A stretch of 62,375 nt of DNA, counting the filler, from Babesia bigemina (lineage: Eukaryota): NCBI RefSeq assembly GCF_000981445.1. It is 13 parts of 13 records of this genome, joined end to end, with 100 filler letters (N's around TTAATTAATTAA, not from the genome) between each part and the next. Parts side by side here need not be neighbours in the genome. Positions count along the whole stretch, not along the records: positions 47,132 to 54,158 come from NW_012236916.1; 12 more parts are not named here. The stretch is one strand, 5' to 3'. Shown here piece after piece: positions 20,437 to 62,375 of the stretch. The number at the start of each line of letters is the position of its first letter. Positions within the stretch are counted from its first letter, which is position 1. The notes under the pieces were generated by a model, which was not told where the DNA came from, ran no database searches, and worked only from the letters and a program-made list of their open reading frames with translations. The translations under genes and the position numbers were made by a program.

Positions 20437-21170
20437 TGCATTTCTGGCTACAGGAGTCAAATCCACAATATTCGATGGTTTATCGAATGCATAGGCACCT
20501 AGATAACTGGAAGTTGTTTTCAAACTGCATTGTGTTGACCTATTAAACGAAAGAAGAATCTCAATGGTGTGATGTGCCAAAAAGGTGAGCAGAGAATGGC
20601 TATGCGATGCACATAAGTGGCGTCAAGCGCTGACGCGTCTCGTCCATGCCGGGTTGGCTATGCGGTTTGCAAGCTTTAAATGATGGCAGTTCAGTGGAGA
20701 CTTGCCATAGTACCGTGATCAATCGAATGACGCCGCCAAATTTGTGTTTCGGTTGTGACCCACGCACCGTCCAAGGAAAACGTGCAACAATTGTAAGAGT
20801 AGGTGGGTGCTGTTTGACATTTCAAGGGTAACCGCCGTACCCATGAGATACCATACACAACAAGTATAGGCAATACGTGCATCAACTGCCCGACTATCAT
20901 TGCGTTGGAGTCAAAGGAGTCGAGAAACTAAAGGTGTGAATACCAGAAAGTCGACGGAAGCAAGGTTGGAGCGATAAGTCGAATAAATGCTGATGATTTG
21001 TTATGCATGTCGATTCGCATTATGGCTAATATGAAAGCTCGCTGTGCGGGCAATAACCACAGGCGAACCGATTTCTAAATGTCTACTAGTACACGCAGAC
21101 AAACAAATAGTAAAATACCTCGTATATGGCGCAGGTACGCATTTATGCAATCGTAAAATGAGTCGTACAA

Positions 21171-21557
21171 CCCCATTCCCTGTAAACGCCGTAACATTCT
21201 GGTTTCGCGGGCAACGGGGTCAAGGTGCAGCTAGCAGAGTGGCATACATTAGTGCTGCACCGGTACGAGGTGCGGCTGACAGTGCAGACACCCACCTGGC
21301 CATAGTCCGCTGCAATTAGGGACCTTCAGACGCACAGAAGGCAGGACGCAAGGCTCCAAAACCTCGCGAACTGCACGGCGGCGCTCATGCGGGACACACG
21401 TGCCGAGGAAGCAGAAGCCACCGAATTGGCGCACGCATATCGCGCTTACACATGACAGCAACAGGCACAATGCGCTCAAACAAAGCGTCAAATGCCGCAC
21501 GGAAGGACGGTGGCATGTGGAAGGCAACACGGCGGTGCGCAGACACACCGGCCGCAT
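21171..21557 (-). other. Second copy of the aldo-keto reductase 5' region, with a signal-peptide-like segment
   Basis: 21171-21410 is ~96% identical to 18635-18874. ORF 21249-21557 has RHLTLCLSALCLLLSCVSA followed by an Arg-containing stretch. Confidence 0.7.
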
Positions 21558-22984: not shown

Positions 22985-23613
22985 TCGATCCGCTTCGTCG
23001 CTACCCTCGGATGTCGTTCACAATGCAGTTTCGATTGTGCAAATGCCATCACTGTGGTGCAGTTCGTTTTATATCAACGTCCACTCTGTCATTCCAGTGA
23101 CAATTCAACTTGGACTAAACATATAGTCTTAGAGTAGCAAACGTCACAGGTAACGGCATCAATTCCTTTACAATTGTCATTTGCGGAATTTTGTCCACGT
23201 GTGCCTTACAACTCTGGCTGACAACGACGCTCAGCTGTAACAATACTTCTCGTACATTTGAACCGAAAGTCGCCGTCCTATTTGACCAGACGACTTCAAG
23301 AAGTCTCCAATGCTTTCAGACATATAACCGCCGGTTGTGATACCGGGATATGATACAAGTGTTGTGAGTCGTCGAATTTTATTGAAATTTTTTAAGTTCG
23401 TCAAAATTCATACGTGTGGCTGGGGCCGACGCTCTTTTTTACAAGGCTACTGCCTCACGCTCATGACGCAGATGACGAGGATTATGACGGCGGCGATGGC
23501 GATGATGTAAGGGGCAGGTGTCATGGTTAATTCACTCCTCATGTGATTGGTCATCAACTCAATCACTACTCTGTCTAGACATTAGATATCAGTTGCCAGT
23601 TAGGTTAGTGTGA

Positions 23614-24099
23614 TCAGCTGCGCAGTAGATACCGCACCCTGTGGAACGGCCGGATGCGGAAGTAGACCATGACGCAGATGACGACGATGATGAGAGCGAC
23701 GGGGACGGCGGCGATGATGATGGGAAGGATGGCGGGGGATGACGTCGAGTCATCGGTGAGCTGCTGTTGACTGGCAGTGTGAGGATCTGCACGGGAGGAG
23801 GTGTAGTGACCGGGGGACTGTGCGGCACTGCAGTTAGTAACTTGTTCACTTGAACACTTCTTTTTACAACACTCACATTGACATGTAGACTCTTTGCCTC
23901 TACATTTGGTATTACAATCGAAAGTTTCGCATTTGTAACTCGGGTCTGCGTATGTAGTGCGCTTAAGGTAATGTGGCTTACATCCCTTGCAATTACCGTT
24001 ATTCTTACATTTTTTACAACACCACGGACAACAAATACAGCTAATACCCATTACACATCCAGTATCACATTCACAATCGTGCCTCAGCAACCCCGACAT
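23614..24099 (-). CDS. Small Cys-rich single-pass membrane protein, copy 1
   Basis: CxCxxGC..CxCCPWCCxxC..C..C..CxCxCC..C, S/T/Q stalk, TM LPIIIAAVPVALIIVVICVMVYF, tail RIRPFHRV; paralog at 49908-50342. Confidence 0.75.
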   Translation of the reverse strand: MSGLLRHDCECDTGCVMGISCICCPWCCKKCKNNGNCKGCKPHYLKRTTYADPSYKCETFDCNTKCRGKESTCQCECCKKKCSSEQVTNCSAAQSPGHYTSSRADPHTASQQQLTDDSTSSPAILPIIIAAVPVALIIVVICVMVYFRIRPFHRVRYLLRS

Positions 24100-24953
24100 C
24101 TTCCCGCTCCCCTCCCAGTCCCCTCAACGTGCAAACATATGTCAATCACTTAAGCAACGCACTCACCGACCACTCATGAACACGCACCTCAGCAACGCAC
24201 TCACCAACCTACAACATGAACACGCGCCTAAGCAACGCACACTGACCGTCGCCCATCTGCGCTCCGAACAACCGGATGGGCGCCATTCGGCGCACAGGCA
24301 GCCACTTCGCTACTATGCAGCTATCACAACATCAAAACGTTATAAGCTACGCATGTGGATGATATCCCTGCCGTGGCATGCAGTTAAACCGGTGCCAGTA
24401 GGACAGTCCATTTTGCATCACAGACAACGCCAACCCTGTAACAGCCTGCAAGTGCCGTGATGTTTGTGCTTTGTGAAGCAACGCTGTACACTAAAGCACA
24501 TTCAGCGAAGTCACCACTTACTGTCATGCCTACTACAAACTCCCCGTTGCCGTGCCACCCAGTCGCCACCCCGTCGGATTGCCCCGGCATCAGCCACCAT
24601 CTCTACCAACGGTGCCAATCCGTTGGTTGTACACGGAATCAATCGTTAGATGATACGGTATGGTGGCGCGGTATGTAGGCCATTCCTTAAGCCAGGACGG
24701 CAGTCGTCAGACAGCAACATAGAACAACACCCACCACGTCCACAGTCCACCCTGTCACACATCCTTGGTTAGGTCCCCATGACGCTCAAAAAACGTTTTA
24801 CAAACGTATGAGTAACTTTTATCATGAGGTCAACACGCATCACCAACTCAGTTTTACGTCTGGCGTCCAGGCCGCCGGGGGGAGTGCATTAGGGTTTCGG
24901 CTGGGTGAGGTGTACTGCACCGAAGCAGTGACGGGGGTTGGGGGAGTTATCGT
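24100..24953 (-). promoter_or_regulatory. Conserved upstream module of the Cys-rich TM gene (putative 5' UTR with mini-introns plus promoter)
   Basis: Collinear similarity with 50343-51432, including a perfectly conserved core GACCGTCGCCCATCTGCGCTCCGAACAACCGGATGGGCGCCATTCGGCGCACAGGCAGCCACTTCGCTACTATGCA. Confidence 0.55.
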
Positions 24954-27977: not shown

Positions 27978-28813
27978 GCTCCCTAACCCACTCTACATCG
28001 CCCCTTTACCCACTCTACGTCGCTCCCTAACCCACTCTACATCGCCCCTTTATCCACTCTACATCGCCCCTTTATCCACTCCACATCGCTCCTTTATCCA
28101 CTCCACATCGCCCCTTTACCCACTCTACGTCGCTCCCTAACCCACTCTACATCGCCCCTTTATCCACTCTACATCGCCCCTAATCCACTCTACATCGCTC
28201 CCTAACCCACTCTACATCGCTCCCTAACCCACTCTACATCGCTCCCTAACCCACTCTACATCGCTCCCTAACCCACTCCACATCGCCCCTAATCCACTCT
28301 ACATCGCTCCCTAACCCACTCTACATCGCCCCTTAACCCACTCTACATCGCTCCCTTATCCACTCTACATCGCCCCTCTATCCACTCTACATCGCCCCTT
28401 AACCCACTCCACATCGCTCCCTAATCCACTCTACATCCCTCCCTTATCCACTATACATCGCCCCTTAACTCACTCTACATCGCCCCTTTATCCACTCTAC
28501 ATCGCTCCCTTATCCACTATACATCGCTCCCTAACCCACTCTACATCGCTCCCTAACCCACTCTACATCGCTCCCTAATCCACTCCACATCGCCCCTTAA
28601 CCCACTCTACATCGCTCCCTAATCCACTCTACATCGCTCCCTAATCCACTCCACATCGCTCCCTAACCCACTTTACATCGCCCCTTTATCCACTCTACAT
28701 CCCTCCCTAACCCACTCTACATCGCCCCTTAACCCACTCCACATCGCCCCTTTGTCCACTCTACATCGCCCCTTTGTCCACTCTACATCGCCCCTTTATC
28801 CACTCTACATCCC
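27978..28813 (+). repeat. 22-bp ves-associated minisatellite
   Basis: Same unit as 25054-27560; 5' of a ves1-like ORF. Confidence 0.97.
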
Positions 28814-29001
28814 TTCAATTACCTCGCCATAATACCTCTATGACCTCTATTAACCATAGCAATAACTTGTGCCTTGTCACCCTTCACTTCCCTTCTTCCA
28901 CCTCTTGCCACTGCCATGTCCCATCATGTTCACCTTAACTCCAAATCCCTCGAATTTGCTCGTCTTATTAACGCTATCACCTCTTTAAACCACAATAATA
29001 A

Positions 29002-30441: not shown

Positions 30442-31395
30442 GGGCGCCGCTTCTAGAATGGCCTCATTTTCTCTATACCTCAGTTGGAACCGAGACCTGT
30501 CCAGGTTAAGCACCATTTTATCGCCCTTATACAATACTGTCGCTCCAGGAGCAAACTGATGTCGTGAGCTTAAACTAGTTCTTGATGCAGATGACGTTTT
30601 AAGCACAGAAGTTAAAAGAGTGATAACTTCTTCAGCTTCAAATATCACCCCAGCTTTTTTCTGCTCATGAAGGTTAGATGCCTGCTGCTTAAGTAATTCC
30701 TCTTTATCTGTAAAGGCTTTTTGAAGTGCATCACCTGACCGGGCAGATAGTTCACCGGGGTGAGAAAAAAGAGCAACAACTGATTTAGGCAATTTGGCGG
30801 TGTTGATACAGCGGGTAATAATCTTACGTGAAATATTTTCCGCATCAGCCAGCGCAGAAATATTTCCAGCAAATTCATTCTGCAATCGGCTTGCATAACG
30901 CTGACCACGTTCATAAGCACTTGTTGGGCGATAATCGTTACCCAATCTGGATAATGCAGCCATCTGCTCATCATCCAGCTCGCCAACCAGAACACGATAA
31001 TCACTTTCGGTAAGTGCAGCAGCTTTACGACGGCGACTCCCATCGGCAATTTCTATGACACCAGATACTCTTCGACCGAACGCCGGTGTCTGTTGACCAG
31101 TCAGTAGAAAAGAAGGGATGAGATCATCCAGTGCGTCCTCAGTAAGCAGCTCCTGGTCACGTTCATTACCTGACCATACCCGAGAGGTCTTCTCAACACT
31201 ATCACCCCGGAGCACTTCAAGAGTAAACTTCACATCCCGACCACATACAGGCAAAGTAATGGCATTACCGCGAGCCATTACTCCTACGCGCGCAATTAAC
31301 GAATCCACCATCGGGGCAGCTGGTGTCGATAACGAAGTATCTTCAACCGGTTGAGTATTGAGCGTATGTTTTGGAATAACAGGCGCACGCTTCAT
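30442..31395 (-). CDS. sopB: F-plasmid partition protein SopB (vector contamination; 3' end low quality)
   Basis: [38 protein letters not shown].. is the F SopB sequence. Confidence 0.98.
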
Positions 31396-32570
31396 TATCT
31401 AATCTCCCAGCGTGGTTTAATCAGACGATCGAAAATTTCATTGCAGACAGGTTCCCAAATAGAAAGAGCATTTCTCCAGGCACCAGTTGAAGAGCGTTGA
31501 TCAATGGCCTGTTCAAAAACAGTTCTCATCCGGATCTGACCTTTACCAACTTCATCCGTTTCACGTACAACATTTTTTAGAACCATGCTTCCCCAGGCAT
31601 CCCGAATTTGCTCCTCCATCCACGGGGACTGAGAGCCATTACTATTGCTGTATTTGGTAAGCAAAATACGTACATCAGGCTCGAACCCTTTAAGATCAAC
31701 GTTCTTGAGCAGATCACGAAGCATATCGAAAAACTGCAGTGCGGAGGTGTAGTCAAACAACTCAGCAGGCGTGGGAACAATCAGCACATCAGCAGCACAT
31801 ACGACATTAATCGTGCCGATACCCAGGTTAGGCGCGCTGTCAATAACTATGACATCATAGTCATGAGCAACAGTTTCAATGGCCAGTCGGAGCATCAGGT
31901 GTGGATCGGTGGGCAGTTTACCTTCATCAAATTTGCCCATTAACTCAGTTTCAATACGGTGCAGAGCCAGACAGGAAGGAATAATGTCAAGCCCCGGCCA
32001 GCAAGTGGGCTTTATTGCATAAGTGACATCGTCCTTTTCCCCAAGATAGAAAGGCAGGAGAGTGTCTTCTGCATGAATATGAAGATCTGGTACCCATCCG
32101 TGATACATTGAGGCTGTTCCCTGGGGGTCGTTACCTTCCACGAGCAAAACACGTAGCCCCTTCAGAGCCAGATCCTGAGCAAGATGAACAGAAACTGAGG
32201 TTTTGTAAACGCCACCTTTATGGGCAGCAACCCCGATCACCGGTGGAAATACGTCTTCAGCACGTCGCAATCGCGTACCAAACACATCACGCATATGATT
32301 AATTTGTTCAATTGTATAACCAACACGTTGCTCAACCCGTCCTCGAATTTCCATATCCGGGTGCGGTAGTCGCCCTGCTTTCTCGGCATCTCTGATAGCC
32401 TGAGAAGAAACCCCAACTAAATCCGCTGCTTCACCTATTCTCCAGCGCCGGGTTATTTTCCTCGCTTCCGGGCTGTCATCATTAAACTGTGCAATGGCGA
32501 TAGCCTTCGTCATTTCATGACCAGCGTTTATGCACTGGTTAAGTGTTTCCATGAGTTTCATTCTGAACAT
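31395..32570 (-). CDS. sopA: F-plasmid partition ATPase SopA (vector contamination)
   Basis: [22 protein letters not shown].., deviant Walker A KGGVYKT, ends LIKPRWEIR. Confidence 0.99.
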
Positions 32571-32898
32571 CCTTTAATCATTGCTTTGCGTTTTTTTATT
32601 AAATCTTGCAATTTACTGCAAAGCAACAACAAAATCGCAAAGTCATCAAAAAACCGCAAAGTTGTTTAAAATAAGAGCAACACTACAAAAGGAGATAAGA
32701 AGAGCACATACCTCAGTCACTTATTATCACTAGCGCTCGCCGCAGCCGTGTAACCGAGCATAGCGAGCGAACTGGCGAGGAAGCAAAGAAGAACTGTTCT
32801 GTCAGATAGCTCTTACGCTCAGCGCAAGAAGAAATATCCACCGTGGGAAAAACTCCAGGTAGAGGTACACACGCGGATAGCCAATTCAGAGTAATAAA

Positions 32899-33145
32899 CT
32901 GTGATAATCAACCCTCATCAATGATGACGAACTAACCCCCGATATCAAGTCACATGACGAAGGGAAAGAGAAGGAAATCAACTGTGACAAACTGCCCTCA
33001 AATTTGGCTTCCTTAAAAATTACAGTTCAAAAAGTATGAGAAAATCCATGCAGGCTGAAGGAAACAGCAAAACTGTGACAAATTACCCTCAGTAGGTCAG
33101 AACAATGTGACGAACCACCCTCAAATCTGTGACAGATAACCCTCA
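32899..33145. promoter_or_regulatory. incC: F-plasmid incC iterons (five 19-bp RepE-binding repeats)
   Basis: CTGTGA-N7-CCCTCA-like copies at 32899, 32982, 33073, 33105 and 33127, between repE and sopA. Confidence 0.9.
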
Positions 33146-33147
33146 GA

Positions 33148-33669
<522 letters not shown>

Positions 33670-36876: not shown

Positions 36877-37897
36877 TGTAGAGTGGATTAGGGAGCGATG
36901 TAGAGTGGATAACGGTTCGATGTAGAGTGGGTTAAGGGGCGATGTGGAGTGGATAAAGGGGTGATGTAGAGTGGGTTAGGGAGCGATGTAGAGTGGGTTA
37001 GGGAGCGATGTGGAGTGGTTTAGGGAGCGATGTAGAGTGGATAAGGGAGCGATGTAGAGTGGTTAAAGGGGCGATGTAGAGTGGGTTAAGGGGCGATGTA
37101 GAGTGGGTTAGGGAGCGATGTGGAGTGGATAAAGGGGCGACGTAGAGTGGATTAGGGAGCGATGTAAGGTGGGTTAGGGAGCGATGTGGAGTGGATAAAG
37201 GGGCGACGTAGAGTGGATTAGGGAGCGACGTAGAGTGGATAAGGGGCGATGTAGAGTGGATAAAGGGGCGATGTATAGTGGATAAAGGGGCGATGTAGAG
37301 TGGGTTAGGGAGCGATGTAGAGTGGATAAAGGGGCGATGTAGAGTGGGTTAAGGGGCGATGTAGAGTGGGTTAAGGAGCGATGTGGAGTGGATTAGGGAG
37401 CGATGTAGAGTGGATAGAGGAGCGATGTAGAGTGGGTAAAGGGGCGATGTAAGGTGGGTTAGGGAGCGATGTAGAGTGGGTTAAGGAGCGATGTAGAGTG
37501 GGTTAGGGAGCGATGTAGAGTGGGTTAAGGAGCGATGTAGAGTGGGTTAAGGAGCGATGTAGAGTGGGTTAGGGAGCGATGTAGAGTGGATAGAGGAGCG
37601 ATGTAGAGTGGGTTAAGTGGCGATGTAGAGTGGGTAAAGGGGCGATGTAGAGTGGATAAAGGGCGATGTAGAGTGGGTAAAGGGGCGATGTGGAGTGGGT
37701 TAAGGGGCGATGTAAGGTGGACAAGGAGCGATGTAGAGTGGGTTAAGGGGCGATGTAGAGTGGGTTAGGGAGCGATGTGGACTGGATAAAGGAGCGATGT
37801 AGAGTGGGTTAGGGAGCGATGTGGAGTGGGTTAGGGAGCGATGTAGAGTGGATAAAGGGGCGATGTGGAGTGGGTTAAGGAGCGATGTAGAGTGGAT
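36877..37897 (-). repeat. 22-bp ves-associated minisatellite (reverse orientation)
   Basis: GATGTAGAGTGGGTTAGGGAGC tandem units. Confidence 0.97.
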
Positions 37898-37916
37898 TAT
37901 AATCACCACTAGTGTC

Positions 37917-38033
37917 CATGTCATCGCTGCCGTAACCAGTAACCATGTCATCGCTGCCGTGACCATGTCATCGCTGCCGTGATCATGTCATCGCTGCCGT
38001 AACCTTAACTTGGTAACCATGTCATCGCTGCCG
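37917..38033 (-). repeat. 20-bp repeat (CACGGCAGCGATGACATGGT)
   Basis: About 5 interrupted copies; same family as 60845-61025; abuts the 22-bp array in both places. Confidence 0.9.
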
Positions 38034-39157
38034 CGCCCAGTCCCCTCAACCTACTAACTTATCAATCACTCAAGCAGCACTCACCAACTGCAACACGTAC
38101 CACTGCCGCTCCCAGTCCCCTCAAGCTGCAAGCATATCAGTCACCTAGCAACGCACTCACCAACTGCAACACGTACCACTGCCGCGCCCAGTCCCCTCAG
38201 CCTGCAAACATATCAATCACTCAAGCAGCACTCACCAACTGCAACACGTACAACTGCCACTCCCAGTCCCCTCAACCTGCGAACATATCAATCACCTAGC
38301 AACGCGCTCACCAACTGCAACACTACCACTGCCGCTACCAGTCCCCTCAACCTGCAGACATATCAATCACATAAGCAACGCACTCACCAACTGCAACACG
38401 TACACTGCCGCTCCCAGTCCCCTCAACCTGCGAACATGTCAATCACCTATGCAAGCACTCACCAACTGCAACACTGCCACTGCCGCTCCCAGTCCCTTCT
38501 GCCTGCAAACATATCAATCACTCAAGCAACGCACTCACCAACTACGACACGTACCACTGCCGCTCCCACTCCCCTCAACCTGCAAACATATCAATCACCT
38601 AGCAACGCACTCACCAACTGCAACACGTACCACTGCCGCTCCCAGTCCCGTCAAGCTGCAAGCATATCATTCACCTAGCAACGCACTCACCAACTGCAAC
38701 ACGTACCACTGCCGCGCCCAGTCCCCTCAGCCTGCAAACATATCAATCACCTAGCAACGCACTCACCAACTGCAACACGTACCACTGCCGCGCCCAGTCC
38801 TCTCAACCTGCGAACATATCAATCACATAACCAACTCACTCACCAACTGCAACACTACCACTGCCCCTCCTAGTCCCTCAACCTGCATAAATATCAATCA
38901 CCTAGCAAGCACTCACCACCTGCAACACTACCACTGCCGCTACCAGTCCCCTCAGCCTGCACGCATATCAATCACCTAGCAACGCACTCACCAACTGCAA
39001 CACTACCACTGCCGCTCCCAGTCTCCTCAGCCTGCGAACATATCAATCACTCAAGCAGCACTCACCAACTGCAACACTACCACTGCCGCTCCCAGTCTCC
39101 TCAGCCTGCGAACATATCAATCACTCAAGCAGCACTCACCAACTGCAACACGTACCC
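38034..39157 (-). repeat. ~75-bp tandem repeat, 15 units, each a 34-36-nt GTGAG..YAG intron-like segment plus a 39-41-nt exon-like segment
   Basis: Minus-strand unit GTGAGTGCGTTGCTAGGTGATTGATATGTTTGCAG|GTTGAGGGGACTGGGAGCGGCAGTGGTACGTGTTGCAGTTG. Confidence 0.93.
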
Positions 39158-39660
39158 TCACCGCTGTATCCCCCCAGCCCAGGCCACCGACACCCACGCT
39201 GCCCAGGATACCACAGCTGCAACTGACGCGACGCATGTCATCAGCACCAACTGTCACTCTAAATTATTCACTATTCGCAACGCCATCAAAATCGCAGCGA
39301 ACCCCGTGCGCTCAACTCCCACAGTGCAGCAGCACCGTGCTACGAGCCGCGGTATCGGCGCCATGCTGGAGGAGCGTGTTCTCTACGTGCCTAAATGTGA
39401 TATTAACAATCACTACATCGATGCCTATAAATGCTAAATAACCTGGCCAACGCCGATTACGCCACCCTGCCAGTGACTCGCAACACACGACTTAGGTCAC
39501 CCGCTGCGGCACTCACGACCGCCTACGTTAGCGATCAATCACCCAGCCTCACGTGACACTCACTCAATGAGCAACGCAAACGCCTCTCACAGTCAACGCA
39601 CAACTCAACGCACCAGGCAATCAACGTGCTACAACAACTACCAAATCACGGTTCATCCGC

Positions 39661-40853
39661 CAGCTTTACACTTTGCCTGGTTGCTAGGTCAGCACTTTGC
39701 CTGGTTGCTAGGTCAACACGTTGCCTGGGTGCTAGGTTAGCACTTAGCCTGGTTGCTAGGTCAACACGTTGCCTGGTTGCTAGGTTAACACATTGCCTGT
39801 GTGCTAGCTCAACACTTTGCCTGGTTGCTAGCTTAGCACTTTGCCCGGGTGCTAGCTTAGCACTTTGCCTGGGTGCTTGCTTACCACTTTGCCCGGTTGC
39901 TAGCTTAGCACTTTGCCTGGTTGCTAGCTTAGCACTTTGCCTGGTTGCTAGCTTAGCACTTTGCCTGTGTGCTAGGTTACCACGTAGCCTGTGTGCCAGC
40001 TTACCACTTAGCCTGCGTGCTAGCTTAGCACTTTGCCTGTGTGCTAGCTTACCACGTTGCCTGGGTGCTTGCTTAGCACTTTGCTTGGGTGCTTGCTTAG
40101 CACTTTGCTTGGGTGCTTGCTTAGCACTTTGCTTGGGTGCTTGCTTACCACCTTGCCTGGTTGCTAGCTTAGCACGTTGCCTGGTTGCTAGCTTATCACT
40201 TAGCCTGTGTGCTAGCTTAGCACATTGCCTGGACGCTAGGTTAACACTTTGCCTGAGTGCTAGCTCAGCACTTTGCCTGGTTACCAGCTTACCACTTTGC
40301 CTGTGTGCTAGCTTACCACGTTGCCTGTGTGCTAGCTTAGCACTTCGCCTGGTTGCTAGCTTAGCACTTCGCCTGGGTACTAGGTTAACACTTTGCCTGG
40401 GTGCCAGCTTACCACGTTGCTTACGTGCCAGCTTAGCACGTTGCCTGGTTGCCAGCTTAGCACTTTGCCTGGGTGCCAGCTTAGCACGTTGCCTGCTTGC
40501 TAGCTTACCACGTTGCTTACGTGCCAGCTTAGCACGTTGCCTGGTTGCTTGCTTAGCACTTTGCCTGTGTGCTAGGTTAGCACTTAGCCTGGGTGCCATC
40601 TTAGCACTTTGCCTGGATGCTAGCTTAGCACTTTGCCCGGGTGCTAGGTCAACACGTTGCCTGGTTGCTAGTTTAGCACTTTGCCTGGTTGCTAGCTTAC
40701 CACGTTGCCTGGTTGCTAGCTTAGCACTTTGCCTGAGTGCTAGCTTACCACGTTGTCTGGTTGCTAGCTTACCACTTTGCCTGGGTGCCAGCTTAGCACT
40801 TAGCCTGTGTGCTAGCTTAGCACTTTGCCTGGTTGCTAGCTTAGCACTTTGCT
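39661..40853. repeat. 24-bp minisatellite (CTTTGCCTGGTTGCTAGCTTAGCA), ~50 units, 3' of a ves1 gene
   Basis: Tandem units without indels; yields octapeptide ORFs on both strands (LALCLVAS / AKLATRQS). Confidence 0.95.
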
Positions 40854-43900: not shown

Positions 43901-46020
43901 ATATTAGGCTTGTCTTTCGATATCTTCTGTTTTAGGTCGTTCAGTCTGCCTCTGAGCCTGTCGTTCACTTCCTTTTCGTCATCCGTCGTTAGCGCTTTCA
44001 TAATATCATCAGATAGCGCACGAAGGTGTTTGGTTAGATTTTGAGCATAATCTATAACGCCCTGTTTAGATTCCTCGGCAAACGTGGCAAACTTCTCTAC
44101 TTCATCGTTGAGGGGCTGAAGATGTTGAATAACAATCTCATCAATTTCCGTCTGAAGATTTGCCTCACCTGTGATGGCGGCACCTATGAGGAGCTCGACA
44201 AATTCTGAATTAACGGCTGCGGTCTTATTGCTGAGAGCTTCCTTGACTGCTTGGAGCGTCTGGATATATATTTTAGATGCCGGAGGATTCTCGCCCTCCC
44301 ACGTGCTCACAGCTGCTTGGATATTCGTAAAGAACCTCTCCAAATTCTTACCAAGAGTGGGATCCCCATGCTTCTCATTGGCAGTCTCTAGCAATCCTCC
44401 CACATGTCTTATCTTCCCCAGCGCAGTACCACCCAAAGCATTAAGACCCGGAGTTTGACCATCCATTGCCACAGCTGCTGTCGCCGCTACTTTCAAAGAA
44501 TCCACTAATTCTCCAACATATCCTTCAACGTTCTGCTTAATTTTGCTCATGAGCTTTTCAATCTGAAGTGACAGATTCCAGTCGCCTTCCTTCCACTTCT
44601 CCAACTGTTGTGGCTCCTTTACTTTGCTTTGAACCTCATTAAGCTTCTTCATAACGCAGTCTTTATCTTCACCATCTCCATCCTTCCCTTTAATGAGCGT
44701 AAAAACCTTATCGTATTCAGATTTAGCAGCTTCGAATTGTCCGTGCAGCACACCGGCCTCAACCTTCAGCTTATCGGCAACATCTTTTATTTTATACGGA
44801 TTAGTATCCGAATTGTCATCCTTAAGCGCATTTAATATTTCCTGAACCAGTTTGTAAGATTCTTCTACAACCATGTCTGCCTTCGTTATCCAATCCGTAA
44901 GACCATTAATGCATTGCTTAAGTTTTTCATTGATGCTGTCGAGATTCTTCACAATAACCGAAATTTTCTCCTTCAAGTCGGCGACAAGTTTCTCCACATC
45001 TATCTTAATTTTTTCATTCACATTGCAATTAAGTCCGTGAAGAGTCTCCTTAATAATTTTCTCCGTGGCCTCCAAACCTCTCTGCTGCTTTGCGTGGATA
45101 TCTTCGAGTTTCTTACTTTCATGGGCAATATTAATTTTTACACGCTCAATATTTTGACGTAATTGAGGATTCAAATCGGCAACATCTTCGTGTGCCCTTC
45201 TAATATTTTTGCCGAATTCTCTGGCATTTTGTCTGCATTCCTTAACTAACTTCTCAACCTTAGTGACCTGGGCATCCTTAACTTCCGGGGATCCAGCAAC
45301 ATCGTCTACGCGAATGCCATTGAAATCTCTATTAAAATTACCGCCATGTGTGACGTATTTGAGTAGCTTACTTGTAATAGTTTTGACATTTTCATTTGAC
45401 CTCTTCACCCTCTCATTATACCCCCGCACCCCTTCGACCACACTTCCAATCGCAGCATTAAAACCTTTTTTACCGGCGTGTTTATTGGTGTTAAGAATGT
45501 TAATTGCATTATTTAAAGTATCTTTATGCTGCCCTAAATGCTCTTTGATGTTACTGAGAACGCCACTCAAAAATCCCATCACCCCGTCACACAGCCTATC
45601 CAGGTCAGAGTACACAATCCCACCGCCATCGTAGCCTTTGGAGTCAGAGTTGAAGCCGAGGAAGGTTTCGAGGCCAGTGCATAGGTTATTAAGCAAATCA
45701 TGTGGATAATTTGTGTTGCTTTCATTTGCTTTTTTAAAGTTCTCAAGTTTCTCTATCTTCTCCTTGATGCTCTGACAATTCGAAGGATCTTGACAATCAA
45801 GATTATTATGAATATCATTTTGAAAGTTTTTACACTTTTTTTGCCGTTCAGTAAGGATATCTAAAGCATTCTTAACGGCTTTCTTAACACTCTCACTCTC
45901 ACCAACAAATCCGCCAAGTTGACCAGCAAGGTGACCAAGGCTAACAAGCTTGGACTCAATGCCATCCAAGGCTCTTTTAGTAGCATCGTCAGTGAGAGAA
46001 TGGTCAGTATCAGCAAATTC
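40999..46020 (-). CDS. ves1: ves1-like antigen, near full length (~1670 codons), YLQP tail class, no start ATG
   Basis: N-terminal LCTGLETFLGF..GIVYSDLDRLCDGVMGFL, coiled-coil middle, Cys-rich C-terminal domain, TM (FTYLVLALWSLSLFYLICVMV), tail RLDVLHIRSHL..SSHKI..YLQP. The frame opens after TAA at 46021-46023. Confidence 0.92.
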   Translation of the reverse strand, partial: EFADTDHSLTDDATKRALDGIESKLVSLGHLAGQLGGFVGESESVKKAVKNALDILTERQKKCKNFQNDIHNNLDCQDPSNCQSIKEKIEKLENFKKANESNTNYPHDLLNNLCTGLETFLGFNSDSKGYDGGGIVYSDLDRLCDGVMGFLSGVLSNIKEHLGQHKDTLNNAINILNTNKHAGKKGFNAAIGSVVEGVRGYNERVKRSNENVKTITSKLLKYVTHGGNFNRDFNGIRVDDVAGSPEVKDAQVTKVEKLVKECRQNAREFGKNIRRAHEDVADLNPQLRQNIERVKINIAHESKKLEDIHAKQQRGLEATEKIIKETLHGLNCNVNEKIKIDVEKLVADLKEKISVIVKNLDSINEKLKQCINGLTDWITKADMVVEESYKLVQEILNALKDDNSDTNPYKIKDVADKLKVEAGVLHGQFEAAKSEYDKVFTLIKGKDGDGEDKDCVMKKLNEVQSKVKEPQQLEKWKEGDWNLSLQIEKLMSKIKQNVEGYVGELVDSLKVAATAAVAMDGQTPGLNALGGTALGKIRHVGGLLETANEKHGDPTLGKNLERFFTNIQAAVSTWEGENPPASKIYIQTLQAVKEALSNKTAAVNSEFVELLIGAAITGEANLQTEIDEIVIQHLQPLNDEVEKFATFAEESKQGVIDYAQNLTKHLRALSDDIMKALTTDDEKEVNDRLRGRLNDLKQKISKDKPNITDSLQALQGRLDTLHSDVKAEPITKLRYLLNTYADHVRDKYVKQTQEQVNQQVKRAVYTITQQARKQYVSFVSDMLTLFSTKVAEELTGLPQEMDHDLVIGLHGFMHRFEYTFNPNFSGYAANPPETLHDLSSKFSHSINYFVQELKTQNNLDADVARLSSPFSAVSRLFNDLNTSHHFDHTFSQNISDLVSKLEHCAPKQFGDLSNAMLDVLKSGLHGLAGELSKAYVSVYDGASNINWEQENNPETTYCAKIFLTAFSTIYDAVHDLRINCNSLKGHQIHSTSDLGRLFLRHGFRVSESDKQHWELQNKDVINGEYVANRLSFRVTGAKDNDHLKQCESNERKSNVLFNLFDILKCILYHIDKYNEACHIAILPKPRTPCTVFEMLVWLSGLTYTSAYQALLSDGFTNVLDNPDTPLAGDGEITVFDIEKSYLEAHPQKITYKNICKVLDYLCSKSYDLLTTVVGHGDAATFYACDYSNNTLNLYYPSSGEDCLQMLLDFLRRILQPLRFLFERCSVADKNYGWADCHYGRDVPTTKSHCNIKPTDEAACLPNCQPNCKPNCQPTSPLMNYLSDSLLGYLPHRLESVGCKSKCSTCPSTSRLGMPCVTPLGFRAFSGSTKTGRQLGEMIREFLGSGVVSSLFGLSPTPPKTLPEHFGFGLSLVNKWVNVKSYLNNVGIKPVSQTKIEASIQKLSIKLYTDTGNLTNALRDAYGNSQHEHRHLNHLEVYADVSSLCMTRSCEDSYMRCAPYLSTLCSDTYQYLAHKNFATYLTWAVYLPWDFWTQLNNLCNAFKNIFCQDWGCHTCLRADKCKRGQHGLVEQKEGEPAKPHCKCPSMVQCKGVSATLYQFGFCFGNAATLNNETSAKKCSDFCSQLDRVLKSEYFKKLFTECDNFIWTIREPFTYLVLALWSLSLFYLICVMVGRLDVLHIRSHLRIPSSHKITAQSLLTTAQVGRLAKISYLQP

Positions 46021-46203
46021 TTATAATGGTTTATAGAGGTCATAGCGTTAATAAGACGAGCTAATTCGAGAGATTTGGAGATAGGGTGAACATGATGGGA
46101 CATGGCAGTGGCAAGAGGTGGAAGAAGGGAAGTGAAGGGTGACAAGGCACAAGTTTTGAGGATGGTTTATGGAGGTCATAGCGGTATTATGGCGAGGTGA
46201 TTC

Positions 46204-47031
46204 GAGCGATGTAGAGTGGGTTAGGGAGCGATGTAGAGTGGATAAAGGGGCGATGTAGAGTGGATAAAGGGGCGATGTGGAGTGGATAAGGAAAGATGTA
46301 GAGTGGGTTAAGGGGCGATGAAGAGTGGGTTAGGGAGCGATGTAGAGTGGGTTAGGGAGCGATGTGGAGTGGAGTAAGGGGCGATGTAGAGTGGATAAAG
46401 GAGCGATGTAGGGTGGATTAAGGGGCGATGTAAGGTGAGTTAGGGAGCGATGGAGAGTGGATAAGGGAGCGATGTGGAGTGGGTTAAGGAGCGATGTAGA
46501 GTGGGTAAAGGAGCGATGTAGAGTGGATAGAGGAGCGATGTAGAGTGGGTTAGGGAGCGATGTGGAGTGGGTTAGGGAGCGATGTGGAGTGGGTAAAGGG
46601 GCGATGTAGAGTGGATAAAGGGGCGATGTAGAGTGGGTAAGGGGCGATGTAGAGTGGATAAAGGGGCGATGTAGGGTGGGTAAAGGGGTGATGAAGGGTG
46701 GTTAAAGGAGCGATGTAGAGTGGATTAAGGGGCGATGTAGAGTGGGTAAATTGGCGATGTAGGGTGGATTAGGGAGGTATGTAGGGTGGATAAAGGGGCG
46801 ATGTAGAGTGGAGTAAGGGGCGATGTAGAGTGGAGTAAGGGGCGATGTAGAGTGGATAAGGGAGCGATGTAGAGTGGATAAAGGGGCGATGTAGAGTGGG
46901 TAAAGGAGCGATGTGGAGTGGATAAAGGGGCGATGTAAGGTGGATAGAGGAGCGATGTGGAGTGGGTAAAGGAGCGATAAAGGGTGGATAAAGGGGCGAT
47001 GTAGAGTGGGTAAGGGGCGATGTAGGGGGAT
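46204..47031 (-). repeat. 22-bp ves-associated minisatellite 5' of the minus-strand ves1
   Basis: Same unit, oriented with the gene. Confidence 0.97.
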
Positions 47032-47133
47032 NNNNNNNNNNNNNNNNNNNNNNNNNNNNNNNNNNNNNNNNNNNNTTAATTAATTAANNNNNNNNNNNNN
47101 NNNNNNNNNNNNNNNNNNNNNNNNNNNNNNNAT

Positions 47134-48870
47134 GCTGCGCCGAAATTAGGGCGCCCTAAAGTTGACGATTTAGATGATCTTGCGCTGAAGGATGCTGAGG
47201 GTGCAAAAATGTATACCCCCCTGGCCGTGTTTCCCGGGCAATCCCCGTTTGATGACAACCCAAACGTCTGCCAAGCTCCCTGGTACGTCCCCGAGCATTC
47301 CAAAAATCTCATCCCTCCGATCGTAACCCCTCCCCCAGTCACCGATCATCTGCATTCTCCCAAAACGGTCCGAGAAATGCTCTATTGGCTGGTCGGCGTT
47401 GTCGAATTAGGGTACATTGGTTTTATTCGGAAGCATGTTGATGTAGTTTTGGATGATGTTAATACGGACTCCTTCCTGCCTACTAATGTGCTCTTAGTCA
47501 CCAGGAATCTTACAACCGTCACCTCACACGAGATCTCCCAAACCCTCACCGCGGCGTGTCACTATGCGGCTAAAGTTCTACACAGGCTTAAACATAGAGA
47601 CGTTTCGAACGAGACTTCAATTCCCGAGTTCAATGCAGAGTATCGCAATTATTATTACTCCTCTGACCCCGACGGGCTTCTCTGCCAGCTGCGGGACTAC
47701 GCCTACGCCTCCCACCACCAGTTGGAGTTCCTGAAGGCGCAGTGTAATAGGGATAAATCGCTTGGTGGTTGGCAAAGTCATGAGTATGGCAGTGGTATCA
47801 AGGAGCAATCTCCACTCCAGGCGTTCCTGACCGACAGCTGGGACTCCACCTTCCACACCCACTTTTTCGACCCATGTAACATCTGCCTCAAGAGCCGCAT
47901 CAAGATGGGATTTAGAGACAAGGATTTGCCTAAGACATCGCAACAGGGCAGTGTCATTTCTGCCATCCTCACTCCCAGCTGCGGCGGTGAGGACCCCTTG
48001 ATGACGTTGTCCTCCTACCTCAACTGCCTCACCAGGCGGACGCCGCGCACCACTGGGGAACTCGTCTCGTTCTTCCAGCATTTCGGGAGTGAGATGCTCA
48101 ATGGTAGTGATCAGACGTTGACTAACCTAGGAAAGGCCATCACCGAGCCTCCAGCGCTCTACCCCAATTGGGATCATTTCGAGGCTCACGACCTACGAGC
48201 GGTGCGGGATATACGGCGTCCCGAGTCTCCTGTCTCCAAACACGACAATGACCACGCCGGGACGCTGTCGACACTGCTGGGCTGCGACAGTGTTACTTCC
48301 AACGGTCCTAAACTTCTGTCGCCAATCACCTACCGGGCATATGCCCTGTACTCCCCGGCCTTCGCCCAGACATACCTCAGCTGGACGGTCTACCTGGCCG
48401 ATGTACTCCGAGACTCACTGGATCGGCTGCGATATGATTTCAAGACGCATACATGTTCCGGGAATAAATCATTCAACCAGTGTGACATGGCTATGCCCCT
48501 CCTCTACCTACACGGGCTCACGCCACCGGAGGGCATATCGCAGTCATCACTCGCGTGTTCGGAGCTCATCACCAAGCTGGAGGAAGTGGTAAACGGTGGA
48601 CCTATCGCGAAGCTCATCACGTGCATGGATGAGTTCCTCTACAGGGTACGTGGGCCATTCATCTACACGGTTATCGCACTGTGGTCCACCGCATTCCTCA
48701 TCTTCGCCAAAACGATGATCTACCGCTTGGACGTGCTCCACATCCGCTCACACCTTATCCGCTCCACGGCTTCACACCGCATCGACGTCAAGGCCTTACT
48801 CACGAAAGGACGCAAGATGCTCTCACTGTACGGCGTCGACTACTTCGACGATGACCCGATGCTCTCATAG
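47134..48870 (+). CDS. ves1: ves1-like antigen, C-terminal part, second tail class (..VDYFDDD); 5' truncated by linker
   Basis: PKTVREMLYWL, SPLQAFLTD, MGFRDKDLP, TPRTTGELVSFF, YLSWTVYL, TM, RLDVLHIRSHLIRSTASHRIDVKALLTKGRKMLSLY; the frame is open from the contig start. Confidence 0.88.
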   Translation, partial: AAPKLGRPKVDDLDDLALKDAEGAKMYTPLAVFPGQSPFDDNPNVCQAPWYVPEHSKNLIPPIVTPPPVTDHLHSPKTVREMLYWLVGVVELGYIGFIRKHVDVVLDDVNTDSFLPTNVLLVTRNLTTVTSHEISQTLTAACHYAAKVLHRLKHRDVSNETSIPEFNAEYRNYYYSSDPDGLLCQLRDYAYASHHQLEFLKAQCNRDKSLGGWQSHEYGSGIKEQSPLQAFLTDSWDSTFHTHFFDPCNICLKSRIKMGFRDKDLPKTSQQGSVISAILTPSCGGEDPLMTLSSYLNCLTRRTPRTTGELVSFFQHFGSEMLNGSDQTLTNLGKAITEPPALYPNWDHFEAHDLRAVRDIRRPESPVSKHDNDHAGTLSTLLGCDSVTSNGPKLLSPITYRAYALYSPAFAQTYLSWTVYLADVLRDSLDRLRYDFKTHTCSGNKSFNQCDMAMPLLYLHGLTPPEGISQSSLACSELITKLEEVVNGGPIAKLITCMDEFLYRVRGPFIYTVIALWSTAFLIFAKTMIYRLDVLHIRSHLIRSTASHRIDVKALLTKGRKMLSLYGVDYFDDDPMLS

Positions 48871-49907: not shown

Positions 49908-50342
49908 TTAGTTGTAAAATGCGATGCAAAACGGTAAATCACGGACCCTGTGGAACGGCCGGATGCGGAAGTAGATCATGACGCAGACAACGATGATGAC
50001 GAGGGCGACGGCGGCGATGATGATGGGGAGGACGTTGGGGGAATTGGCGGTAGGCTGTTGCGTGTCGGTCCGACGCTGAGCGGTGGGGAGAGAGGCGGCA
50101 CTGCAGGCGGGAATTTCTCCACGTGCACATTTCGCTCTACAACAATTACATTGACATTTAGACTCGTTGCCTTTACATTGGGTGTCGCACCCCGACGGAG
50201 GGCATTCCTTGCTTTTTCTGCGCAAATTTTTAAACAGCAAACATGCAATGCAATGGCTGCTATTATTACATCCCGAACAGCACCACGGACAGCACTTACA
50301 CTCCTTAAGAAATGTACATCCAGTACCGCAATCGCAGTCCAT
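49908..50342 (-). CDS. Small Cys-rich single-pass membrane protein, copy 2
   Basis: DCDCGTGC..CKCCPWCC..CDTQCKGNESKCQCNCC, TM LPIIIAAVALVIIVVCVMIYF, tail RIRPFHRV; paralog of 23614-24099. Confidence 0.78.
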   Translation of the reverse strand: MDCDCGTGCTFLKECKCCPWCCSGCNNSSHCIACLLFKNLRRKSKECPPSGCDTQCKGNESKCQCNCCRAKCARGEIPACSAASLPTAQRRTDTQQPTANSPNVLPIIIAAVALVIIVVCVMIYFRIRPFHRVRDLPFCIAFYN

Positions 50343-50371
50343 CTTCCCCTTCTCCTCCCACTCCCCTCAAC

Positions 50372-50723
50372 CTGCAAGCATATCAATCACCTATGCAAGC
50401 ACTCACCAACTGCAACACGTACCACTGCCGCTCCCAGTCCCCTCAACCTGCAAACATATCAATCACTCAAGCAGCACTTACCAACCTACTACATGAACAC
50501 GCACCTCAGCAACGCACTCACCAACCTACAACATGAACACGCACCTAAGCAACGCACTCACCAACCTACAACATGAACACGCACCTAAGCAACGCACTCA
50601 CCAACCTACAACATGAACACGCACCTAAGCAACGCACTCACCAACCTACAACATGAACACGCACCTAAGCAACGCACTCACCAACCTACAACATGAACAC
50701 GCACCTAAGCAACGCACACTGAC
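50372..50723 (-). repeat. Mini-intron array: six 40-bp units (36-38-nt GT..AG plus GTTG) followed by two introns of the 75-bp family
   Basis: Intron-like segments at 50686-50723, 50646-50681, 50606-50641, 50566-50601, 50526-50561, 50486-50521, 50448-50481 and 50372-50406. Confidence 0.9.
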
Positions 50724-51432
50724 CGTCGCCCATCTGCGCTCCGAACAACCGGATGGGCGCCATTCGGCGCACAGGCAGCCACTTCGCTACTATGCATCTA
50801 TCACAACACTGATATGTTTTAGTTAACGCATGTGGCTGCTGTCTTTGCCGTGGCATGCAGGTCAACCAGTGCCAGTTGGGAAGGCCACTCTGCATCACAG
50901 ACAACGCCACCCCTGTAACAGCCTGCAAGTGCCATGAAGTTTCTGCGTTGAGAACAAACGCTGTACACTATAGCACATTCAGCGACGTCACTACTCACCT
51001 TCGTGCCTCTTACAACCTCACCGTTACCGTGTCACCCAGTCGCCACCCCGTCGAATTGCCCCGACATCAGCCACCACCTAGACCAACATTACCAATTCGT
51101 TGGTTGTACACGGTTTTAGTCGTCAGATGATACAGCTTTGTGGAGCGGTAGATAGGCTGATACTTCACTTAGCACGGCAGATGGTCATACGGCAACAGGG
51201 GCCAGCACCCACCACGCCCACAATCCACCCTGCCACACCGCCTTAGTCAGGTCCCTTTGATGCCTATAAGCGTGCAATGTTATGATGTTCTGTAAAGACT
51301 GATAATACGCCAACATGATTTTGATGCTTATTTTGTTTTGGACGTCCAATCCGCTGGGTGAGGTGCATTAGGGTTTAGGCTGCGTGAGGTGGACTGCGTC
51401 GGAGCAGTGACGGGGGTTGGACGAATTATCGT
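50724..51432 (-). promoter_or_regulatory. Conserved upstream module of Cys-rich TM gene copy 2
   Basis: Collinear with 24247-24953. Confidence 0.55.
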
Positions 51433-52800: not shown

Positions 52801-54158
52801 CAATAACAAGGCAAATTAGAATCAAGGCTTATCTAAGGCCAGAAACAGGAAGATGAGTAGCTGAATAAGATAAGATGAGTAGCTGAATAAGATGAGTAGC
52901 AATAACAAGGCAAATTAGAATCAAGGCTTATCTAAGGCCAGAAACAGGAAGATGAGTAGCTGAATAAGATAAGATGAGTAGCTGAATAAGATAAGATGCG
53001 TAGCTGAATAAGATAAGATGAGTAGCTGAATAAGATAAGATGAGTAGCTGAATAAGATAAGATGAGTAGCTGAATAAGATAAGATGAGTAGCTGAATAAG
53101 ATAAGATGAGTAGCTGAATAAGATAAGATGAGTAGCTGAATAAGATAAGATGAGTAGCTGAATAAGATAAGATGAGTAGCAATAACAAGGCAAATTAGAA
53201 TCAAGGCTTATCTAAGGCCGAGCGAAGTGAGGCCAGAAAAAGGAAGATGAGTAGCTGAATAAGATAAGATGAGTAGCTGAATAAGATAAGATGAGTAGCT
53301 GAATAAGATAAGATGAGTAGCTGAATAAGATAAGATGAGTAGCTGAATAAGATAAGATGAGTAGCTGAATAAGATAAGATGAGTAGCTGAATAAGATAAG
53401 ATGAGTAGCTGAATAAGATAAGATGAGTAGCTGAATAAGATGAGTAGCAATAACAAGGCAAATTAGAATCAAGGCTTATCTAAGGCCAGAAACAGGAAGA
53501 TGAGTAGCTGAATAAGATAAGATGAGTAGCTGAATAAGATAAGATGAGTAGCTGAATAAGATAAGATGAGTAGCTGAATAAGATGAGTAGCTGAATAAGA
53601 TAAGATGAGTAGCTGAATAAGATAAGATGAGTAGCTGAATAAGATAAGATGAGTAGCTGAATAAGATAAGATGAGTAGCTGAATAAGATAAGATGAGTAG
53701 CTGAATAAGATAAGATGAGTAGCTGAATAAGATAAGATGAGTAGCAATAACAAGGCAAATTAGAATCAAGGCTTATCTAAGGCCGAGCGAAGTGAGGCCA
53801 GAAACAGGAAGATGAGTAGCTGAATAAGATAAGATGAGTAGCTGAATAAGATAAGATGAGTAGCTGAATAAGATAAGATGAGTAGCTGAATAAGATAAGA
53901 TGAGTAGCTGAATAAGATAAGATGAGTAGCTGAATAAGATAAGATGAGTAGCTGAATAAGATAAGATGAGTAGCTGAATAAGATAAGATGAGTAGCTGAA
54001 TAAGCTAAGATGAGTAGCTGAATAAGATAAGATGAGTACCTGAATAAGATAAGATGAGTAGCTGAATAAGATAAGATGAGCCGCTGAATAAGATAAGATG
54101 AGTAGCAATAACAAAACAAATTAGAATCAAGGCTTATCTAAGGCCGAGCGAAGTGAGG
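52801..54158. repeat. Higher-order satellite: runs of 22-bp GATGAGTAGCTGAATAAGATAA separated by a constant 51/66-bp spacer
   Basis: Spacer CAATAACAAGGCAAATTAGAATCAAGGCTTATCTAAGGCC(GAGCGAAGTGAGGCC)AGAAACAGGAA starts at 52801, 52900, 53180, 53448, 53745 and 54106. Confidence 0.96.
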
Positions 54159-54258: not shown

Positions 54259-54693
54259 AACGCACTCTACATCGCTCCCTAACCCACTCTACATCGCCCC
54301 TTTATCCACTCTACATCGCTCCCTAACCCACTCTACATCGCTCCTTAATCCACTCTACATCGCTCCCTAACCCACTCTACATCGCTCCCTAACCCACTCT
54401 ACATCGCCCCTTAACCCACTCTACATCGCTCCCTAACCCACTCCACATCGCTCCTTTATCCACTCTACATCGCTCCTTAACCCACTCTACATCGCTCCCT
54501 AATCCACTCCACATCGCTCCCTAACCCACTCCACATCGCCCCTTAACCTCTTCTAATCGCTCCCTTATCCACCCTACATCGCTCCCTAACCCACCTTACA
54601 TCGCTCCTTAACCCACTCTACATCGCCCCTTAACCCACTCTACATCGCCCCTTTATCCACTCCACATCGCTCCCTTATCCACTCTACATCGCT
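54259..54693 (+). repeat. 22-bp ves-associated minisatellite
   Basis: Same unit; directly 5' of ves1. Confidence 0.97.
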
Positions 54694-60729: not shown

Positions 60730-60845
60730 AAAGTGTTGACCAATGTGCTGCCCAATGCCATGACCAAGATGCTGACCAATGTGCTGACCAAAGTGGTGAC
60801 CAATGCCACGACCAAAGTGCTGACCAACGTGCTGACCAAAGTGGT
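60730..60845 (+). repeat. 12-bp repeat (GTGCTGACCAAW)
   Basis: About 9 degenerate copies 3' of ves1; resembles half (CAAAGTGCT) of the 24-bp unit found 3' of the other ves1. Confidence 0.85.
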
Positions 60846-61049: not shown

Positions 61050-62375
61050 ATCCACTCTACATCGCCCCTTAACCCACTCTACAACGCCCCTTAACCCACT
61101 CTACATCGCTCCCTAACCCACTCTACATCGCCCCTTTGTCCACTCTCCATCGCCCCTTTACCCACTCTACATCGCTCCTTAACCCACTCTACATCGCTCC
61201 TTAACCCACTCTACATCGCCCCTTTACCCACTCTACATCGCCCCTTAACCCACCTTACATCGCTCCTTATCCACTCTACATCGCTCCTTTATCCACTCTA
61301 CATCGCTCCCTAATCTACTCTACATCGCTCCCTAACCCACTCTACATCGCCCCTTAACCCACTCCACATCGCCCCTTACTCCACCTTACATCGCCCCTTT
61401 ATCCACTCTACATCGCCCCTTTATCCACTCTACATCGCTCCCTTATCCACTCTACATCGCCCCTTTACCTACTCTACATCGCCCCTTAACACACTCTACA
61501 TCGCCCCTTTACCCACTATACATCGCCCCTTGGTCCACTCCACATCGCCCCTTATCCACCCTTCATCGCCCCTTTATCCACTCTACATCGCTCCTTTATT
61601 TACTCTACATCGCCCCTTAACCCACTCAGCATCGCCCCTTTATCCACTCTACATCGCCCTTTAATCACTCTACATCGCCCCGTAACCCACTCTACATCGC
61701 CCCTTAACCCACTCTACATCGCCCCTTAATCCATCCTACATCGCCCCTTATCCACTCTACATCGCCCCTTTATCCACTCTACATCGCTCCTTAACCCACT
61801 CTACATCGCCCCTTTATCCACTCTACATCGCTCCCTAACCTACTCTACATCGCCCTTTAACCCACTCCACATCGCCCCTTAACCACCTTACATCGCCCCT
61901 TTCTCCACTCCACATCGCTCCCTAATCCACTCTACATCGCCCCTTAACCCACTCCTCATCGCTCCCTAACCCACTCTACATCGCTCCCTAACCCACTCTA
62001 CATCGCCCCTTTACCCACTCTACATCGCTTCCTAATCCACTCTACATCGCCCCTTAACTTCCTCTAATCGCTCCCTAACCCACTCTACATCGCCCTTTTA
62101 TCCACTCCACATCGCCCCTTAACCCACTCTACATCGCTCCCTTATCCACTCTACATCGCTCCTTTATCCACTCTTCATCGCCCCTTTATCCACTCCACAT
62201 CGCTCCCTTATCCACTCTACATCGCTCCCTAATTCACTCTACATCGCTCCCTTATCCACTCTACATCGCTCCTTTATCCACTCTTCATCGCCCCTTTACC
62301 CACTCCACATCGCTCCCTAACCCACTCCACATCGCCCCTTTACCCACTCTACATCGCTCCCTAATCCACTCTACA
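61050..62375 (+). repeat. 22-bp ves-associated minisatellite, running off the window
   Basis: Same unit and orientation as the arrays preceding ves1 ORFs. Confidence 0.97.

Follow-up and report, generated by a model that had tools for sequence, protein, structure and literature searches.

What is the tandem repeat that lies directly upstream of the start codon of a small Cys-rich membrane protein gene in Babesia bigemina, a parasite of cattle, and might its units, each with the outline of a short intron, be removed by splicing? The window, which is the whole stretch of DNA that was analysed, comprises 62,375 nucleotides in 13 short pieces with N spacers between them, and ves1-type genes are present in it. 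Paralog DNA was confined to the window, and paralogs beyond it were known from protein models alone.

The original prediction placed eight intron-like segments in 352 bp on the minus strand, and its coordinates and anatomy, spacers included, were borne out. TRF gave a period of 40 bp in 6.1 copies with 98% identity at 50474-50717. Between 50723 and 50372 (352 bp, minus strand), eight GT...YAG segments of 38, 36, 36, 36, 36, 36, 34, and 35 nt were found; six GTTG spacers and one 41-nt spacer lie between them, and 29 nt follow up to the ATG at 50342. The array runs in the orientation of the sense strand of the gene. The segments and spacers may be read as introns and micro-exons, both terms being interpretations. 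The features of this locus (locus A) and of the gene facing it are listed below.

47132..48870, plus strand: ves1-type gene (3' portion) that converges on locus A; its C-terminus is common to two other ORFs of the window
49908..50342, minus strand: locus A ORF, 144 aa, with a Cys-rich domain, a Ser/Pro/Thr linker, a predicted TM helix, and a short basic tail
50343..50371, minus strand: last leader segment, 29 nt, purine-rich, with an in-frame TGA at its start and the family-conserved GGGAAG at its end, before the ATG
50372..50406, minus strand: unit 8, intron-like and 35 nt long; its ATG is in the frame of the main ORF and is followed by the TGA after 4 codons
50407..50481, minus strand: unit 7, of the 76-bp type, a 34-nt intron-like segment plus the 41-nt spacer; 72 of 75 nt match unit 13 of array C
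50482..50525, minus strand: unit 6 with both flanking GTTG spacers; the 36-nt segment lies at 50521-50486 and ends TAGTAG
50526..50685, minus strand: units 2 to 5, four identical 36-nt intron-like segments with a GTTG spacer before each, 12.1 bits
50686..50723, minus strand: unit 1, intron-like, 38 nt, GTCAGT...TAG, with unit 1 of paralog B as its ortholog; splice score 9.4 bits
50681..50792, minus strand: block of about 110 bp with an upstream ATG (50763) and unit 1, 97-100% identical between A and B, identity being mostly 70-95% further upstream
50961..50998, minus strand: single-copy intron-like element present in A and B, starting GTGAGT or GTAAGT and closed by TAG (31 nt) or CAG (38 nt)

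The claim of a uniform 36-nt unit stands for units 2 to 6; it does not extend to unit 1, which is 38 nt long with a GTCAGT donor, or to units 7 and 8, which belong to a different, 76-bp-type unit. An ATG with a stop 1-4 codons later is found in every unit of locus A (8/8), and 11 upstream ATGs were counted between 50800 and the main ATG. The ATG at 50797, present in locus A only, had been missing from the earlier description, as had a 15-copy array at 38028-39156. This array (array C), its upstream block, and the paralogous locus (paralog B) are as follows.

23614..24099, minus strand: paralog B ORF, 161 aa, intact, with 21 Cys
24100..24246, minus strand: paralog B array, with unit 1 intact, units 2 and 3 without YAG, and then a 29-nt last segment
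38028..39156, minus strand: array C, 15 units of the 76-bp type, all with GT...YAG
39159..39236, minus strand: upstream block of array C, matching the N-termini of models P0007 and P0018

Three units, two of them with damaged acceptors, had been described for paralog B, and this was confirmed. No YAG occurs there from the unit-2 donor to the ATG, and the ORF is nonetheless intact; either B is silent, or it tolerates retention, or splicing is not required. In array C, each unit consists of an intron-like segment and a 40/41-nt spacer. No Cys-rich ORF follows behind array C, whose junction with a ves-associated minisatellite of 20-bp period lies at the microhomology CGGCAG; the match of its upstream block to the N-termini of P0007 and P0018 marks it as an orphaned leader of the Cys-rich family. 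No homology was found between the upstream regions of A and C (107/200 shuffles were equally good). The 76-bp unit was also considered as a dimer of the 40-bp unit, and this was rejected, the first half being clearly homologous (0/200 shuffles) and the second borderline (9/200).

The protein of locus A has one long hydrophobic helix, predicted at residues 105-126, and 17 Cys are invariant in the alignment of nine family members. It had no significant Pfam match, and neither the A nor the B protein matched a VESA domain of Pfam. Homology of the Cys-rich protein to VESA was rejected (hhalign probability 2.9% over 9 columns against the VESA C-termini of the window), and so was membership in ves2, whose products are secreted and lack a TM helix, the helix here being at 105-126. 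Structure prediction was uninformative: two low-confidence models (pLDDT 56 and 62) gave no PDB match. Two homologous tail types occur in the family (23461-23507 and 49908-49960); both are combined in the hybrid tail of A, and a remnant second transmembrane segment lies downstream in B. Across the family, several upstream block types are combined with the two tail types.

Profile searches returned 36 and 56 family proteins, making 61 distinct public models in all. The 59 named models are all labelled Babesia bigemina, the others being P0006 (paralog B of the window) and P0033, and family models carry the label 'hypothetical'. By a regular-expression count, the array spacer is translated in 33 of the 61 models and at least twice in 19. 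The spacer motif is lacking in the other 28, many of which start no earlier than the main ATG, so that the leader is out of view. With the spacer present in 33 models, the array appears to be family-wide and placed directly before the start codon, judging from predicted models. Many of the public models (P0002-P0061) are mis-predicted: gene finders have translated the leader array in them, and part of the Cys-rich domain is lost. The public B. bigemina gene models are described as ab initio in the text of PMC4066756, so their use of array introns does not count as independent support. RNA-seq libraries of the kind that could show junctions are also described there, mapped with novel junctions switched off.

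Family tags were also found close to VESA tags. In one VESA peptide group, 5 of 9 tags have a family tag within three gene numbers, and the same holds for both of the genes named as dominant VESA1B genes in the parts of PMC4066756 covered, which ties at least some of the family to ves genes. A search for 17 family locus tags in the supplements of PMC4066756 (file 1 excluded) found none of them and did find a VESA control tag; the 17 stand for 17 of the 61 models, many of which are mis-predicted. Neither the array nor the family was found described in searches of open-access literature or in the parts of PMC4066756 covered. In metagenome contigs, the unit pattern gave 0 matches, and P0019 gave 329 pattern matches with 0 confirmed locus.

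Other features of the window were recorded alongside. One of the ORFs sharing the C-terminus of the convergent ves1-type gene has a weak Pfam VESA1_N match (E=2e-4, below the cut-off). ORFs at 30442-33669, which we take to be F-plasmid SopA, SopB, and RepE, and a lac promoter/polylinker stretch at 10641-10800 are cloning-vector DNA and represent assembly contamination. A telomere-like array at 8744-10540 (TRF unit TTAGGGTT, 226 copies) forms a piece of its own. A 22-bp pyrimidine-rich minisatellite is found at 25056-27556, 27978-28811, 46204-47025, and 54259-54693, and also at 36877-37899 and 61052-62375; at four loci its end lies some 30 nt upstream of the first ATG in a ves1-type gene, and it is a candidate for a promoter or a conversion element. 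Another 22-bp minisatellite, this one with higher-order structure, lies at 52801-54106, about 2 kb upstream of locus A. Directly 3' of two ves1 genes, at 39662-40852 and 60733-60843, are minisatellites with units of 24 bp and, related to them, 12 bp; the two strands of the 24-bp array have open frames of 404 and 444 codons, and the 404-aa frame is without a Pfam match. In two ves1-type genes, a duplicated 5' piece with in-frame stops precedes the long ORF (46020-46180 and 28830-29000) and may be an intron, a frameshift, or a pseudogene. A near-identical segment of about 240 bp was seen by eye in two pieces (18630-18874 and 21170-21410).

The position of the array relative to the start codon was considered next to the family models. 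As had been predicted, an in-frame TGA lies upstream of the main ATG in both A and B. The conserved GGGAAG-ATG is in the frame of the TGA in 26 of 31 readable models and in other frames in 5, with 3 more being unreadable. Both loci and those 26 models thus have the same in-frame TGA ahead of the ATG, which supports the predicted placement of the array in a 5' leader. The last segment measures 23 or 29 nt (counted from model peptides), well within the median B. bovis 5' UTR of 152 nt given in the portion of PMC4148916 covered, and this fits a leader position. The single-copy element at 50961..50998 is a hint that the non-coding upstream region may be a spliced leader. The conserved upstream region was rejected as coding sequence, having stops in all frames and no codon-position bias, and the leader was rejected as a structured RNA (fold z=-0.04, 0 Rfam matches). 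None of the B. bovis promoter motifs is conserved in A and B.

For the comparison with introns, a reference set was inferred in the housekeeping genes of the window by reading-frame continuity, with Pfam pieces as help and not from RNA. One of 15 candidates was dropped for having no open junction. The remaining 14 are 34-42 nt long with degenerate donors, and the predicted agreement in size between the units and the introns of the window was upheld against this set. Across arrays A, B, and C, GT...YAG ends and a length of 34-42 nt are found in 24 of 26 units, a figure that counts copies and not events because the units are related by descent; both broken units belong to B. Intact locus A units score 9.4-13.5 bits, and the leave-one-out median of the inferred introns is 10.5.

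A GT-rich repeat whose period equals intron length easily appears intron-like, and chance controls were run with dinucleotide shuffles. The position-weight score of the 40-bp unit was matched by 101/1000 shuffles and that of the 76-bp unit by 44/1000, and GTRAGY plus YAG at intron distance occurred in 432/5000 shuffles of the 40-bp unit. By the splice score, an unrelated 24-bp minisatellite reaches 12.4 bits. An ATG in the last 14 nt is found in 7 of the 14 inferred introns versus 116 of 658 background YAG sites (p=0.006), and such an intron-end ATG is present in 23 of 24 intact units. A strict rule combined the splice signals with the intron-end ATG, the ATG part being added post hoc, after the data had been seen. 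The strict rule was passed by 75/5000 shuffles of the 40-bp unit and 246/5000 of the 76-bp unit, and by 0 of 4 other ves-associated minisatellites. With shuffles passing the strict rule at 1.5-5% and looser rules at about 10%, the intron resemblance appears to exceed chance moderately. The original prediction would be refuted if GT/AG positions were no more conserved than others; in the 15 units of the 76-bp type, their invariance was not significant (P=0.10), with 44 of 77 columns invariant anyway. The changes at +3 (G/A) and -3 (C/T) in A and C are of kinds that splicing tolerates. On this evidence, the units are likely but not certain to be of intron origin. That an intron-derived unit was multiplied by tandem duplication, as originally proposed, is probably correct given the splice scores, the unit comparison, and the chance controls.

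Which splice sites would be used, if any, depends on the parse. Each unit offers several donors, so the 4-nt exons of the original prediction are only one possible parse. Use of GTGAGT would give 4-nt exons; use of GTTGGT, which lies right at the AG|GT boundary and scores 11.7 bits vs 12.1, would leave no exon; and splicing from a first donor to a later acceptor would remove several units together. One of the 14 inferred introns starts with GTTGGT, and the spacer of unit 7 holds two more donor-like sites, GTACGT at 50422 and GTTGGT at 50410. The public models place four different donors in the 76-bp unit, and the public model of locus A crosses the 40-bp array as one intron. For fission yeast, an EST in which the removed stretch of a tandem repeat is longer than annotated is reported in the part of PMC3629103 covered. 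Some form of splicing of the array seems somewhat more likely than not; splicing unit by unit with 4-nt exons is less likely than not.

The arrays have a visible history. Unit numbers differ between loci, being 3 in B, 8 in A, and 15 in C. Units 2 to 5 of locus A are hybrids, with the left part of unit 6 and the right part of unit 1. The counterparts of A units 1 and 6 are retained in B, where a diagnostic G is common to unit 6 of A and unit 2 of B. Units 2 to 5 are thus likely to have arisen by recent slippage between two ancestral units. Exchange between loci is indicated as well, by the similarity of A unit 7 to C unit 13 (72/75 nt) and by the 97-100% identical A/B block. That block, about 110 bp long, is likely to be a recent conversion tract or a constrained element.

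The explanation considered best, which we hold with about even confidence, is an intron-derived leader minisatellite that recombination reshuffles and splicing would buffer. In a gene family for Cys-rich membrane proteins, one or two ordinary short introns of the leader would have given rise to the array; it would have been multiplied by slippage and by recombination among paralogs, and upon transcription its units would be spliced out, each together with its short uORF. As splicing would remove the unit ATGs, expansions would be nearly neutral and copy number would be free to drift. The array is explicable in this way without any switch. A role at the DNA level, with the array providing homology for gene conversion between ves-linked paralogs, its intron likeness vestigial or incidental and the units mostly unspliced, is somewhat unlikely. 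The rise of A/B identity to 97-100% beside the array fits such a role, as do the unit variants common to A and C, the loss of the gene behind C where it shares a microhomology with another minisatellite, and the joining of several upstream block types to two tail types in the family. The ves loci of the window moreover carry 12-, 20-, 22-, and 24-bp minisatellites, and dead acceptors are tolerated in B. However, recombination is expected at any repeat and does not show function, the array abuts the ATG so that it would be in the pre-mRNA, and the other minisatellites of the window fail the strict intron rule. A conversion tract and a buffered leader minisatellite can both hold.

The remaining alternatives give the array a part in expression or in the protein. 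Retained units might act as a dose-dependent translational brake, a string of 1-4-codon uORFs, with protein output set by how many units there are or by incomplete splicing. We consider this improbable: each unit of A does have its ATG and a stop 1-4 codons on, with 11 upstream ATGs from 50800, the ATG is kept in 23/24 intact units, and B could not remove its units 2 and 3, but ordinary introns of the window often carry this ATG motif at their 3' end as well (7/14), hence no translational role is needed. Little credence is likewise given to a wider version, in which some 60 ves-linked genes would share a leader with a variable number of mini-introns, each containing a short uORF, and with 0- or 4-nt exons between them, array splicing would gate translation, and copy number would tune expression; recombination, by altering unit number and acceptor integrity, would then let splicing decide which paralogs are translated. 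The original prediction had proposed a splicing-based switch, in which inclusion or skipping of a 4-nt exon shifts an uORF beginning MAPIRLF so that it stops before the main ATG or reads across it. Its arithmetic is correct, with a stop 68 nt before the main ATG for six spacers and 35 nt after it for five; the block with the upstream ATG hardly differs between A and B, and 5 of the 61 models have N-termini like it. The switch is nevertheless unsupported and very improbable, since the MAPIRLF block is not family-wide and is only one of several upstream block types, B is unable to form the same isoforms, units 2 to 5 appear to be recent slippage, a further ATG lies at 50797 in locus A, and both the 4-nt exons and their regulated skipping are putative. 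Lowest in standing is the possibility that the spacers are coding micro-exons of a variable Gly/Ser-rich N-terminus, as the public models imply and as is the case in the micro-exon genes of schistosomes. The spacers are translated in 33/61 models, and P0013 and P0015 run from the spacer frame into an intact Cys domain outside the TGA frame. Against this, the in-frame TGA blocks read-through in A, B, and 26/31 readable models, the spacers, at 4, 40, and 41 nt, lack frame symmetry, and the use of four donors with frequent loss of the Cys domain identifies the models as prediction artefacts; we regard this possibility as hardly credible.

If the units of the leader minisatellite are spliced, the locus would present intron multiplication within one species with the source sequence in view, and a natural test of the minimal spacing of 36-nt introns (0 or 4 nt). 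If they are not, the array counts as a further minisatellite of the ves-associated kind. Independently of splicing, it marks a family of small Cys-rich membrane proteins with about 60 members, of which several are encoded next to ves genes.

In B. bovis, ves1-beta genes carry mini-exons and an intron that is hypervariable. According to the parts of PMC4066756 covered, the intron number of B. bovis ves1-beta varies, up to 11, and ves2 genes derive from ves1 5' ends and lack the membrane anchor. The family described here resembles the ves families of that account in occupying the same loci and in having a single C-terminal membrane anchor as in VESA1; the array and the Cys-rich family are not described in those parts of its treatment of ves1, ves2, and smORF genes. 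The array also shares with the 70-bp repeats of Trypanosoma brucei VSG genes the placement of a similar-sized repeat 5' of variable family members (here three arrays in the window and the spacer in 33 of 61 models) and signs of recombination at the array. The function of the VSG repeats was shown experimentally, and intron likeness is not stated for them in the sections of PMC4858185 covered; a conversion role like theirs is putative here. SmPoMuc of Schistosoma mansoni is likewise a parasite multigene family with a 5' array of exon plus intron, variable copy number, and ectopic recombination, its units being about 1 kb long with a coding 27-nt exon and cDNA support, as given in the text of PMC2576457 covered. 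Unlike those of SmPoMuc, the B. bigemina spacers are frame-asymmetric and lie behind a stop codon; a micro-exon gene of the SmPoMuc type was rejected, the spacers being 4, 40, and 41 nt long with an in-frame TGA before the ATG. In the tandem-repeat introns of Schizosaccharomyces SPOG_01682/SOCG_00815, the repeats are exonic coding repeats of 24 nt, whereas the B. bigemina unit is itself intron-sized (PMC3629103, parts covered). That an existing intron can be multiplied through tandem duplication has a precedent in Arabidopsis TOUCH3 (Gao and Lynch 2009, PMC4974935, in the portion covered). As in TOUCH3, a whole intron-like segment with its flanking bases is duplicated head to tail, here at the sequence level; unlike in TOUCH3, the B. 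bigemina unit measures 40-76 bp, is present in up to 15 copies, is non-coding and family-wide, and is putatively spliced.
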